In this document: in pieces, positions 9,093 through 19,651 of the stretch
Layout: the number at the start of each line of letters is the position of its first letter
Numbering within the stretch: position 1 is the first letter of the stretch
IMG/VR virus record: IMGVR_UViG_3300036760_000193
Location: 1-27,394 of that record
Reading direction: 5' to 3' (one strand)
Source of the DNA: a virus
Taxonomy: Duplodnaviria; Heunggongvirae; Uroviricota; Caudoviricetes
Length of the DNA stretch: 27,394 bases
Translations under genes and position numbers: made by a program
Notes under the pieces: model-generated
What the model was told of the DNA's origin: nothing
What the model saw: only the letters and a program-made list of their open reading frames with translations
Database searches by the model: none

Positions 9093-9346
9093 ATTACTTC
9101 CTCCACTTTAGCTTTCGGGATTTTTCGTTTCCAAGTTCTTAAGACCATGTTAATCCCTTTCCGCGCCATGTCTACCTGACCATATAACGGGGAATAAATT
9201 ATCTCATCAGCACAGTGAAGTGCCCCGTTTCTTTCTGCATCTGCCTTTAATAGTCGCTGCACCGACTCAAGGACATTTGCTGCCTTTTCTAACTCTCTAA
9301 CGTAGTTTTCAATCTCAATACGTTGCTTATCTTCTTTCTTGTTCAT
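9089..9346 (-). CDS. Hypothetical protein
   Basis: 85 aa, ATGA overlaps. Confidence 0.6.
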   Translation of the reverse strand: MNKKEDKQRIEIENYVRELEKAANVLESVQRLLKADAERNGALHCADEIIYSPLYGQVDMARKGINMVLRTWKRKIPKAKVEEVI

Positions 9347-10464
9347 ATCTTTGTCTCTCCAGACACTCCTTCTCTCACCCCAATTAGATCGTACACTTTT
9401 TTGTCGTTTAATGGCTTACTATCAAGGAGAGAGAACATAAAATTTTTCAAATCAGATGGAACATTAGAATTAACCCACAGCGCAAAATCCTTGCGGGACT
9501 CTTTTGGAGCTTGATTAAATTTCTCATAACACTCATTAACCAAAAGTGTTCGCTGTTTCTGAAAATTCTCTATTTCAGACTCTACTTCGACACGGTATTC
9601 TTCTGGAGCCAAGGTGATAAGTTCCTTGGCTTGCCCAAGTCCCAAAGCTTCTAGAATGGATTTCCTAGACAACCTTGAAATGAACCTGTGGGCTGCAAGA
9701 TAATTGCTGCCTTTAATCTTGACCAAGCGGTCGGCAAATTTCAATACGTAACCCTCTTCCAAAACAGACAAATCTTTCACATTATCCAGTAGAGAATCTA
9801 GAGAACTGAATTGATAAGTTTTTGGAGAGAAGACACCCAATTCCTTAGCCAGCTTTTCGACTTCTGCGCTTCCCAATAATTCATTGGAATAACGATGACG
9901 AACTCCAATAAGATACAACCCTTCTGGGTAGCCTTTCTTTTTGTAATCAATTACGATTTGGAACTTAGAACTGATAAGCTCAAACATCAACGTGTATTTC
10001 GTTACAAATTCTTCGTTTTTCAAAGACTCTGGCATAATGGATGTAGCATATATTCCGTGATCTGAAGACATAGAACCTTTGGTTGTTAATCGGAATTGAT
10101 TTGGAACTCGTTCTTTGTAGAGAGTTAACATAGACCCATCTAGCTTTTCTGTCACTTCAAAAGCTCCAAGTTTTTCCAAAACTTCATATTTCGTTTCAGG
10201 CAGTTCATCTAGATTGAAGAACTTATCAAAGGGATGAGCAATAACTTCGTTGCCGTCAAGAATTAATCCTCGACACATGCGGTTAAAGGGGTTCCATTTT
10301 TTATCGAATTGTACTTCATTAGAATAATGAAGCATTATAGTGGTGGGAGTGAATGGAGAACAAGCGATTTTGACGCCGCTGCGTTCACATTCTGCTAATA
10401 GATTGTCATGCCACTTTAAGTCTGCGGCGGCAAGATAATGTTCTGGTGTATCGTATTGACTCAT
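9343..10464 (-). CDS. T4 Rnl1-like RNA ligase
   Basis: CRGLIL, HPFDKFFNLDE, motif I TEKLDGS, MFEL, EEGYV, LVKIKG. Confidence 0.93.
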   Translation of the reverse strand: MSQYDTPEHYLAAADLKWHDNLLAECERSGVKIACSPFTPTTIMLHYSNEVQFDKKWNPFNRMCRGLILDGNEVIAHPFDKFFNLDELPETKYEVLEKLGAFEVTEKLDGSMLTLYKERVPNQFRLTTKGSMSSDHGIYATSIMPESLKNEEFVTKYTLMFELISSKFQIVIDYKKKGYPEGLYLIGVRHRYSNELLGSAEVEKLAKELGVFSPKTYQFSSLDSLLDNVKDLSVLEEGYVLKFADRLVKIKGSNYLAAHRFISRLSRKSILEALGLGQAKELITLAPEEYRVEVESEIENFQKQRTLLVNECYEKFNQAPKESRKDFALWVNSNVPSDLKNFMFSLLDSKPLNDKKVYDLIGVREGVSGETKI

Positions 10465-11665: not shown

Positions 11666-11751
11666 TGGAGCACAGGAAGGGAATCGAACCCCCGACGGTC
11701 TTACGACCAATGCGTTTGCAGCGCACCCCCTTACCATTCGGGCACCTGTGC
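11666..11751 (-). tRNA. tRNA-Cys(GCA) with long variable arm
   Basis: GCACAGG/CCTGTGC, loop CTGCAAA, U73, CCA, V-arm GGTC-GTAA-GACC. Confidence 0.88.
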
Positions 11752-15024: not shown

Positions 15025-15080
15025 GAAAAGTAACCCACCGATTTGAGCATTGTAAAGAGGCTTGGCAGGTATTGTTAAAT

Positions 15081-15306: not shown

Positions 15307-15400
15307 TGGCGGAGAGCAGAGGACTTGAACCCCAACCGGAGGATCACTCCGATCTATCTGTTTTCAAAACAGTAGCCAGACCATTCCAGCATTACTCTCC
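15307..15400 (-). tRNA. tRNA-Ser(TGA), 8/4 allo-tRNA-like fold
   Basis: 8-bp acceptor GGAGAGTA/TGCTCTCC, 4-bp T-stem, 6-bp D-stem with tetraloop, long V-arm, G73, CCA. Confidence 0.85.
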
Positions 15401-15401
15401 A

Positions 15402-15620: not shown

Positions 15621-15698
15621 TGGTGGGTACGGAAGGACTCGAACCTTCAAGAACTCGCTTTTGAAACGAGTATGTCTGCCAATTGCAATCACGTACCC
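15621..15698 (-). tRNA. tRNA-Leu(CAA), short variable loop
   Basis: GGGTACG/CGTACCC, loop TTCAAAA, Leu-type D-loop, A73, CCA. Confidence 0.88.
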
Positions 15699-16581: not shown

Positions 16582-16658
16582 TGGTGCGAACGGAGAGATT
16601 CGAACTCTCACTAAGTCGCTCTTAAGGCGACCGACTCTGCCAGTTGGTCTACGTTCGC
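16582..16658 (-). tRNA. tRNA-Leu(TAA), short variable loop
   Basis: GCGAACG/CGTTCGC, loop CTTAAGA, V=TTAGT, CCA. Confidence 0.9.
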
Positions 16659-16733: not shown

Positions 16734-16823
16734 GGCGGAGACCACTGATCCCGACTCAGAACCACATTTTCTGTGATCGCTCGGTTTAGCAAACCGGCCT
16801 GGCTCCCCGCCAGTTTAGTCTCC
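16734..16823 (-). tRNA. tRNA-Ser(GCT), 8/4 allo-tRNA-like fold, ends in CC
   Basis: GGAGACTA/TGGTCTCC 8 bp; T-arm CTGA-GTCGGGA-TCAG; D-stem CTGGC/GCCAG; loop TTGCTAA; long V-arm; G73. Confidence 0.8.
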
Positions 16824-17010: not shown

Positions 17011-17616
17011 TTACTTTTCCTTTTTCAATTCAGTATCCCAGTAGCATGAATCAATAACTTTCTGCCATGCCGTTCTGATTGGCATATGTGGAGGGAACTC
17101 TATAAATGTCATCGCTCCTTTCCACGCAGGTCTACTTGGTTTCGCCAAAAGGTGCATATTAGCTTCTTCTGGTGTCCTGTCTTTCTTTCTTGAGTTACAC
17201 TCGATGCAAGCTGTAACGATATTTGTCCAATCTGTTTTTCCACCGCGAGACCTTGGAATTACATGATCCAAATTCAAATCTGCACTGTGAAACTTGTTAC
17301 CACAGTAAGCGCATTTGTGACCATAGTGCTGATAGATGTTGCGCCTTGAAAACTTCACTTCTCTCTTAGGTAGCCTGTCAAATTTATTTAAGCGAATGAT
17401 ATCTGGAACAGCAATCTTAACCCGTGGTGAATTCACAAACCCATTTGGACTGTCTTTCATGGCTGCTGAAAGCTCTGCCCAACTCTCAAAATTATAGTTG
17501 ACGTATTGGTCATCCAAAGCTTCTGCTAGACCTTGGTACATGAGAGACACAGCTTTCTTCCAATCCACAATTTGGATTGCATAGTAATTTCTGTTTAGCA
17601 CCAAGACATCATTCAT
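17011..17616 (-). CDS. HNH endonuclease (McrA-like/HNH_5 family)
   Basis: VLVLNRNY, FSRRNIY...CAYCG, LNLDHVIPRSRGG, WTNIVTACIECNSRKKDRTPEEA; GAGGTG RBS. Confidence 0.93.
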   Translation of the reverse strand: MNDVLVLNRNYYAIQIVDWKKAVSLMYQGLAEALDDQYVNYNFESWAELSAAMKDSPNGFVNSPRVKIAVPDIIRLNKFDRLPKREVKFSRRNIYQHYGHKCAYCGNKFHSADLNLDHVIPRSRGGKTDWTNIVTACIECNSRKKDRTPEEANMHLLAKPSRPAWKGAMTFIEFPPHMPIRTAWQKVIDSCYWDTELKKEK

Positions 17617-19187: not shown

Positions 19188-19280
19188 TGGTAGACTCACT
19201 CGGATTCGAACCGAGATACCGCCCTCATCTAGGGCTTAACCAGGTATAAGCTGGACGCACTGCCGTTGTGCTATGAGTCC
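19188..19280 (-). tRNA. tRNA-Ile(TAT) with long variable arm
   Basis: GGACTCA/TGAGTCT, loop CTTATAC, V-arm GCCCT-AGATG-AGGGC, A73, CCA. Confidence 0.85.
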
Positions 19281-19354: not shown

Positions 19355-19428
19355 TGGCGGAGTATACGGGTAACGCTCCCGTGCTGTCAGCTTGACAAGC
19401 TGGTATGCTACTATTACATCAATACTCC
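19355..19428 (-). tRNA. tRNA-Asp(GTC), aberrant D and T loops
   Basis: GGAGTAT/ATACTCC, loop TTGTCAA, G73, CCA; D-loop AATAGTA, T-loop AGCGTTA. Confidence 0.88.
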
Positions 19429-19574: not shown

Positions 19575-19651
19575 TGGTGGGCATAGAAAGACTCGAACTT
19601 TCAAAATTCCGTTTCTAAAACGGACGTGTCTGCCAATTGCACCATATGCCC
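19575..19651 (-). tRNA. tRNA-Leu(TAG), short variable loop
   Basis: GGGCATA/TATGCCC, loop TTTAGAA, V=ATTTT, CCA. Confidence 0.9.

Follow-up and report, generated by a model that had tools for sequence, protein, structure and literature searches.

The tRNA-Ser(UGA) gene at 15307..15400 on the minus strand of the window (the whole 27,394-nt stretch of viral DNA that was analysed) raises the question of whether its 94-nt product is an ordinary 7/5 class II tRNA-Ser or an 8/4 cloverleaf, and of what such a molecule does for the phage that encodes it. With RNA position i corresponding to window position 15401 - i, the gene reads GGAGAGUA-AU-GCUGGA-AUGG-UCUGGC-UACUGU-UUUGAAA-ACAG(A)UA-GAUCGGAG-UGAUC-CUCCGGUU-GGGG-UUCAAGU-CCUC-UGCUCUCC-G-CCA, the CCA being encoded. 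The minimum free energy (MFE) structure is a cloverleaf with an 8-bp acceptor stem, a 6-bp D stem, an 8-bp variable (V) stem, a 4-bp T stem, G73 and CCA. At -35.6 kcal/mol (z = -3.0), it was more stable than every one of 200 shuffled sequences. This fold is identical to the 8/4 cloverleaf described in an earlier sequence-only reading of this DNA, from which the 6-bp anticodon stem with bulged A44, the G.U pair closing the V stem and the G.U pair in the T stem were absent.

All parts lie on the minus strand. The 5' acceptor strand GGAGAGUA (RNA 1-8; 15393..15400), in which A8 pairs with U83, is supported by the eighth-pair counts in relatives reported below, and the 3' acceptor strand UGCUCUCC with the discriminator G73 (15310..15318) by the sequence, the MFE fold and the relatives. 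A 2-nt linker, AU, leads to the D arm (RNA 11-26; 15375..15390), whose 6-bp stem GCUGGA/UCUGGC and AUGG tetraloop appear in the MFE fold, the stem also covarying in the family; the D-loop GG is followed by U. The anticodon arm (RNA 27-46; 15355..15374) has a 6-bp stem with bulged A44 and the loop UUUGAAA, as placed by the tRNA-Sec model alignment and the RNAalifold consensus. Its loop has the normal 7 nt with the flanks U33 and A37, and the family alignment column identifies the anticodon as UGA (RNA 35-37; 15364..15366), preceded by U, followed by A and matching the UCN serine codons. The variable arm (RNA 47-67; 15334..15354) consists of an 8-bp stem and the loop UGAUC according to the MFE fold and the relatives, and its closing pair G47.U67 directly abuts the T stem. 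The T arm (RNA 68-82; 15319..15333), supported by the MFE fold, the relatives and RNAalifold, has the 4-bp stem GGGG/CCUC with one G.U pair and the loop UUCAAGU. A 9/3 fold was ruled out because its ninth pair would be A.C.

Folding energy alone did not decide between 8/4 and 7/5: pair 8:83 had a probability of 0.86 in the folding ensemble, and loss of A8-U83 (8/4 versus 7/(4+U.U)) costs ~1 kcal/mol. We therefore collected relatives for comparison. An IMG/VR scan for Ser(UGA) genes with the same acceptor ends and position 8 left free gave 117 matches, 84 of which were plain 7/5 tRNAs with U8. A second IMG/VR scan that barred T at position 8 returned a subfamily with the features of Ser(UGA), and a covariance model (R1) built from four non-U8 scan sequences was run over the fetched loci; two further scans covered metagenome contigs and bacterial genome contigs. 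The search for phage 8/4 serine tRNAs that the sequence-only reading had called for was thereby carried out and gave 93 matches; the 66 distinct ones lie on viral, bacterial or metagenome contigs. Ser(UGA) itself scored 86.7 bits with R1.

Among these 66 relatives, the eighth acceptor pair (8:66') was A-U in 32, G-C in 30, C-G in 2 and unpaired in 2. The 49:65 pair, which a 7/5 fold needs, was unpairable in 55 (U.C or U.U in 52, A.C in 3) and pairable in 11, and position 49 was instead engaged in the closing pair of the V stem, as G.U in 53/66 and C-G in 6/66. Compensatory changes were found in all five helices, with 96% of cells paired and a covariation score of 0.79, compared with 0.20 after shuffling and at most 0.14 with the partners slid. 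All six D-stem pairs varied on both sides across the family, which bears out the earlier description of a Sec-like D arm, and the V-stem pairs covaried as well. The outer two anticodon-stem pairs were weaker than the other stems (paired in 54/66 and 49/66 relatives). G1-C72 was present in 65/66, G2-C71 and A3-U70 in 66/66 and G73 in 62/66. The anticodon column read UGA in 30 relatives, CGA in 12, GCU in 12, GGA in 10 and AGA in 1, with one ambiguously aligned, so that 65/66 carried a serine anticodon. The serine identity marks and the UGA anticodon of the earlier reading are thus upheld across the family.

Patterns that excluded T at position 8 had been used to gather the first 30 UGA relatives, and for 26 to 31 of these the pattern also fixed U at position 49. 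Since both positions were constrained in the UGA scans, the 36 distinct non-UGA relatives, found by the covariance model alone, were analysed apart, which removes the pattern bias for the eighth pair. In this unconstrained subset, 8:66' was paired in 35/36 (18 G-C, 17 A-U) and 49:65 was pairable in 0/36. The covariance-model alignments were fitted to the 8/4 model; RNAalifold, applied to an independent MAFFT alignment of 20 members, gave the same 8/4 cloverleaf, with alignment pair 8:84 being G-C in 10, A-U in 9 and C-G in 1. Two other MAFFT alignments (A1 and A2), in which the D and T arms were partly misplaced, were left out of the counts.

An ordinary 7/5 class II tRNA-Ser would leave A8 unpaired, put a U.U mismatch atop a 5-bp T stem and make the eighth pair accidental. 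Both folds keep 12 stacked pairs with the small computed difference given above, and most phage Ser(UGA) genes with this acceptor sequence are indeed 7/5 with U8 in the unbiased scan (84/117). On the other hand, the near-universal U8 is missing from this gene, position 8 covaries with its partner through A-U, G-C and C-G, 49:65 is unpairable in 55/66 relatives and in 36/36 of the unconstrained ones, position 49 is used in a conserved V-stem closing pair, and RNAalifold returned the 8/4 form unprompted. Given the covariation of the eighth pair, the unpairable 49:65 and the RNAalifold consensus, we rejected the 7/5 reading as highly improbable; the 8/4 fold predicted for this gene is settled by sequence comparison and not by folding alone.

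A second 8/4 tRNA of this phage, Ser(GCU), lies at 16734..16823 on the minus strand and was identified from its sequence, its fold (-37.1 kcal/mol) and a covariance model. Its 8-bp acceptor stem ends in A8-U and is followed by an AA linker and a D stem of 5 bp; the anticodon stem has 6 bp, with the bulged A placed as in Ser(UGA), the V stem abuts a 4-bp T stem, the T loop is GUCGGGA and the 3' end is G73-CC. A covariance model built without Ser(GCU) recovered it at 49.5 bits (E ~1e-11), and strong R1 matches across the whole phage genome were limited to Ser(UGA) and Ser(GCU). As Ser(GCU) also has the 8/4 form, 8/4 is the standard form of the serine tRNAs of this phage and not a one-off. Its T loop GUCGGGA (window 16749-16755, minus strand) recurs in three 8/4 serine isoacceptors on another phage contig (L143:2048-2133, 1459-1543 and 2137-2221), and the allied loops AUCGAGA (5) and AUCGGGA (1) occur elsewhere in the 8/4 Ser family; from these sequences, GUCGGGA looks like a conserved T-loop variant (R54...R58) rather than a product of decay.

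Both serine tRNAs are poorly served by standard tools. ARAGORN called the Ser(UGA) gene tRNA-Phe(aaa); we rejected this call, since an AAA anticodon would require a loop without U33 and does not fall in the anticodon column of the family alignment. The Rfam tRNA model RF00005 did not report Ser(UGA) at its gathering score, and Rfam reported nothing for it at curated thresholds; the tRNA-Sec model RF01852 reached 40.9 bits, short of its gathering score (47), and aligned the anticodon stem as 6 bp plus a bulged A. Ser(GCU) was undetected by both ARAGORN and Rfam. Through the Phe miscall and the missed Ser(GCU), the serine tRNAs vanish from automatic annotation, which would describe a phage without a serine tRNA and with a nonsensical extra Phe, although the actual decoding set is complete.

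The window covers the opening 27 kb of a virus record of 193,203 bp, which has direct terminal repeats, a CheckV completeness of 100% and 40.8% G+C. The tRNA array occupies one strand from 10.9 to 19.8 kb, and within it 1 nt separates Ser(UGA) from Thr(CGU) upstream and 5 nt from Gly(UCC) downstream. By combining ARAGORN, Rfam and our own covariance model, we counted ~36 tRNA genes that cover all 20 amino acids, with a U34 tRNA for every four-codon box and Ser(UGA) and Ser(GCU) as the only serine tRNAs. The earlier statement that Ser(UGA) is the sole reader of UCN codons in an otherwise complete set was upheld by the ARAGORN, Rfam and R1 gene list. UCN codons make up 68% of the serine codons in 218 long ORFs (2,577 codons). 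No phage SerRS was found with PF00587 or TIGR00414. An Rnl1-type RNA ligase gene (phrog_562; window 9343-10464, minus strand) flanks the array, an HNH endonuclease gene (window 17011-17616, minus strand) lies within it, and a CCA-adding-enzyme family gene (PF01743; genome 41529-41900, minus strand) is found 22 kb away; judged by family assignment, the three would amount to a toolkit for tRNA repair and maturation. Inside the array, between tRNA-Glu(UUC) and tRNA-Trp, a strong abiF RNA match (RF03085; window 15033-15069, minus strand) scored 53.2 bits against a gathering score of 37. A gene for the Abi_2/AbiF protein (PF07751) is absent from the phage, and the orphan abiF RNA might counter a host AbiF abortive-infection system by mimicking its antitoxin.

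Several other members of the array have unusual forms. The three tRNAs with the Leu anticodons CAA, UAA and UAG (15621-15698, 16582-16658 and 19575-19651, all minus strand) are 77-78 nt long with A73, a Leu-like D loop and a variable region of just 4-5 nt, and are class-I-shaped without a long arm. A tRNA with the anticodon UAU (Ile AUA; 19188-19280, minus strand; 92-93 nt) has a 7/5 body, U8, A73 and a long variable arm with the stem GCCCU/AGGGC, a combination that also occurs at L253:348-439 and L259:388-479, on metagenome contigs with 8/4 Ser tRNAs. The tRNA-Cys(GCA) (11666-11751, minus strand) has U73, a 7/5 body and a long variable arm, GGUC-GUAA-GACC, which is unusual for tRNA-Cys. The tRNA-Asp(GUC) (19355-19428, minus strand), with G73 and the T loop AGCGUUA, scored 48.7 bits in Rfam and was missed by ARAGORN. 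A tRNA look-alike without an anticodon is also present in the array.

Serine is marked for bacterial SerRS by a long variable arm, G73, G2-C71 and A3-U70. According to Mukai et al. (2017, Nucleic Acids Res 45:2776, PMC5389517), SerRS requires the long V arm and the discriminator base and accepts 7/5, 8/5, 9/4, 8/4 and even 9/3 forms; in E. coli, 8/4 and 9/3 allo-tRNAs folded, underwent processing and aminoacylation and were delivered by EF-Tu, and serine-type 8/4 allo-tRNAs were serylated and used by the ribosomes. With its fold, family membership, anticodon and genomic setting established, Ser(UGA) is very probably a functional phage serine tRNA of the published (8/4) tRNA-Ser type that is charged by the host and decodes UCN. 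Its processing, serylation and use on the ribosome are predicted by analogy, from the identity marks and the published 8/4 tRNAs. As 8 + 4 = 12, the 8-bp acceptor and 4-bp T stem keep the normal length of the stacked helix that is measured by RNase P, the CCA enzyme and EF-Tu; position 8 is paired in place of the usual U8-A14 contact, and the D arm is long with a tetraloop as in tRNA-Sec. Host enzymes would process the transcript, and host SerRS would charge it by recognising the long variable arm and G73 together with three invariant pairs, G1-C72, G2-C71 and A3-U70. During infection, U34 would then read the UCN box and, together with Ser(GCU) for the AGY codons, supply all of the serine decoding of the phage set. 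The serine anticodons found throughout the family tie this body to serine, unlike that of the mistranslating allo-tRNAs. RNA data sets containing the locus were not found among public runs, and its DNA was detected only in a sediment metagenome, its probable source, and in one freshwater run (a small share of words).

Two other roles were weighed against that of a serine adaptor. Ser(UGA) might serve mainly as a decoy or shield against host defences that cleave or modify tRNAs, or be a regulatory or decaying tRNA-like gene, a suggestion prompted by the orphan abiF RNA, the anticodon-less look-alike and the Rnl1-type tRNA-repair ligase, which hint at a conflict over tRNAs, and by published work that links some 8/4 allo-tRNA relatives, themselves inactive, to toxin-antitoxin systems (PMC5389517; PMC7609411). 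We regard this as unlikely given that all stems are intact and held by compensatory change, the anticodon loop is canonical on both the U33 and A37 sides, the anticodon fits the serine body in essentially all family members and the one serine gap in an otherwise complete decoding set is closed by this gene; a decoy role and decoding are, moreover, compatible. A broader reading, that the 8/4 Ser tRNAs, the three Leu tRNAs that have lost their long arm and the Cys and UAU tRNAs that have gained one represent a deliberate redesign that hides the phage's own decoding set from host tRNA-targeting defences while leaving it chargeable by host synthetases, with the abiF RNA, the ligase and the look-alike as other arms of the same conflict, is speculative and would probably prove wrong. 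Alternatively, Ser(UGA) could carry a non-serine amino acid or enter the selenocysteine pathway and so recode UCN, in keeping with the tRNA-Sec-like body that scores 40.9 bits with RF01852 and with the alanine charging published for allo-tRNAs with G3:U70. However, its acceptor/T helix has 12 bp and not the 13 bp of tRNA-Sec, its anticodon is UGA and not UCA, the score is below the Rfam gathering score, its third acceptor pair is A3-U70 and not G3:U70, and G73 with the long V arm forms a serine signature cognate to the anticodon, which makes recoding very improbable. The serine adaptor is accordingly the role that we favour.

We then considered how widely this tRNA and its family are distributed. 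Near and distant BLAST searches of the array and the tRNA against 50,697 phage records gave no full-length relative of Ser(UGA), with only its 3' 27 nt matched, at 96% identity to a Gordonia phage tRNA-Ser, and exact IMG/VR scans with the 5' 26-mer and the 3' 27-mer gave no match. The closest relative found was ~64% identical, so that conservation holds for the family and not for an orthologue. A search for relatives through the neighbouring Rnl1 ligase gave 14 loci (best protein identity 47%), none of which was syntenic, and no 8/4 tRNA was found in these loci or in five whole records; these loci do not bear on the clade of the phage itself. On many carrier contigs, 8/4 serine isoacceptors stand next to each other in groups of two to four (e.g. 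L143, L257, L240, L241, L256 and L259). A strict pattern applied to one genome per species matched five genomes among 185,579 species, with carriers in Verrucomicrobiota, Myxococcota, a candidate-phyla-radiation (CPR) lineage and a Flavobacteriaceae MAG, and strong matches were found in 2/101 genomes sampled from the phylum of one carrier. Two carrier chromosomes showed ordinary chromosomal neighbours plus a transposase and were not clearly prophage. From these scattered bacterial carriers and the frequent phage contigs, the 8/4 Ser family looks mobile and phage-enriched; the five species-level genomes belong to scattered lineages from which the host of the phage is not deducible.

Serine-only 8/4 cassettes of two to four isoacceptors were also observed in bacterial MAG chromosomes from Puniceicoccaceae, Limisphaerales and Polyangia (L235:6120-6391, L237:7688-7866 and L238:5344-6374), with ordinary genes around them and an IS4/5 transposase near one. 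Adjoining 8/4 Ser tRNAs on another contig, a tRNA with the Tyr anticodon GUA (L201:9545-9631, minus strand) has A73, a perfect 8-bp acceptor stem GGAUAGUA/UACUAUCC and a 4-bp T stem, and on this sequence may be an 8/4 tRNA-Tyr. A separate group of non-U8 Ser tRNAs from phages is 7/5 with a linker of 3 nt: C8-A9-A10 precedes a 4-bp D stem, and the T stem has the normal 5 bp (e.g. L036:3489-3575, L138:3439-3523 and L047:621-705). This group is unlike both the canonical and the 8/4 forms.

The known architecture of tRNAs is unchanged by these results, whose main consequence is for annotation. They add the hidden partner Ser(GCU), a covariation table for the eighth pair and a warning about automatic annotation, and describe a family that occurs often on phage contigs from the environment and sporadically in the genomes of bacteria. 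The comparative support for 8/4 consists of an eighth pair that swaps among A-U, G-C and C-G in 66 sequences with five serine anticodons; tabulated support of this kind was not found in the available portions of the literature on 8/4 tRNAs.

Among known systems, bacterial tRNA-Sec (RF01852) shares with Ser(UGA) the 8-bp acceptor, the 6-bp D stem with a 4-nt loop, the 6-bp anticodon stem, the long V arm, G73 and charging by SerRS, the last being predicted for Ser(UGA). It differs in its 13-bp acceptor/T helix (8/5 or 9/4) and UCA anticodon, and with 12 bp (8/4), UGA and 40.9 bits against 47, Ser(UGA) falls outside tRNA-Sec. With canonical class II tRNA-Ser (7/5), which most phage tRNA arrays carry, it has in common the GGAGA.../...UCUCC-G acceptor, the long V arm, G73, the anticodon loop and the UUCAAGU T loop. 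Canonical tRNA-Ser, however, has U8, a large D loop on a stem of 3 to 4 bp and a T stem of 5 bp, whereas Ser(UGA) has A8 paired with U83 and would have U.U at 49:65, which sets it apart from this class too.

The closest likeness is to the (8/4) tRNA-Ser already reported by Mukai et al. from bacteriophages, proteobacteria and rumen Clostridia (PMC5389517), judged by the features described in that article. Common to both are the 8-bp acceptor and 4-bp T stem, the long V arm, the long Sec-like D stem with a tetraloop, an anticodon stem lengthened beyond 5 bp, G73, a serine anticodon and a place in a phage tRNA cluster; in the class definition given there, G73 (or U73) is the serine identity mark, and Y20 was used to place 8/4 tRNA-Ser among the allo-tRNAs. 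In the alpha-proteobacterial phages of that study, 8/4 tRNA-Ser adjoins an 8/4 tRNA-His without G-1, whereas the tRNA-His of the present phage (window 17736-17809) is canonical 7/5 with G-1:C73. The (8/4) allo-tRNAs of the Silvibacterium bohemicum allo-tRNA(GAG) type have the same cloverleaf and serine marks and were shown to be processed, serylated and used in translation in E. coli. Allo-tRNAs mostly carry non-serine anticodons and are mistranslating or inactive, whereas the anticodon of Ser(UGA) is cognate and no recoding is therefore expected. As phage (8/4) tRNA-Ser had been reported in 2017, the shape of Ser(UGA) is not new; in sum, it is a well-supported further example of the published 8/4 phage tRNA-Ser and no new type of molecule.
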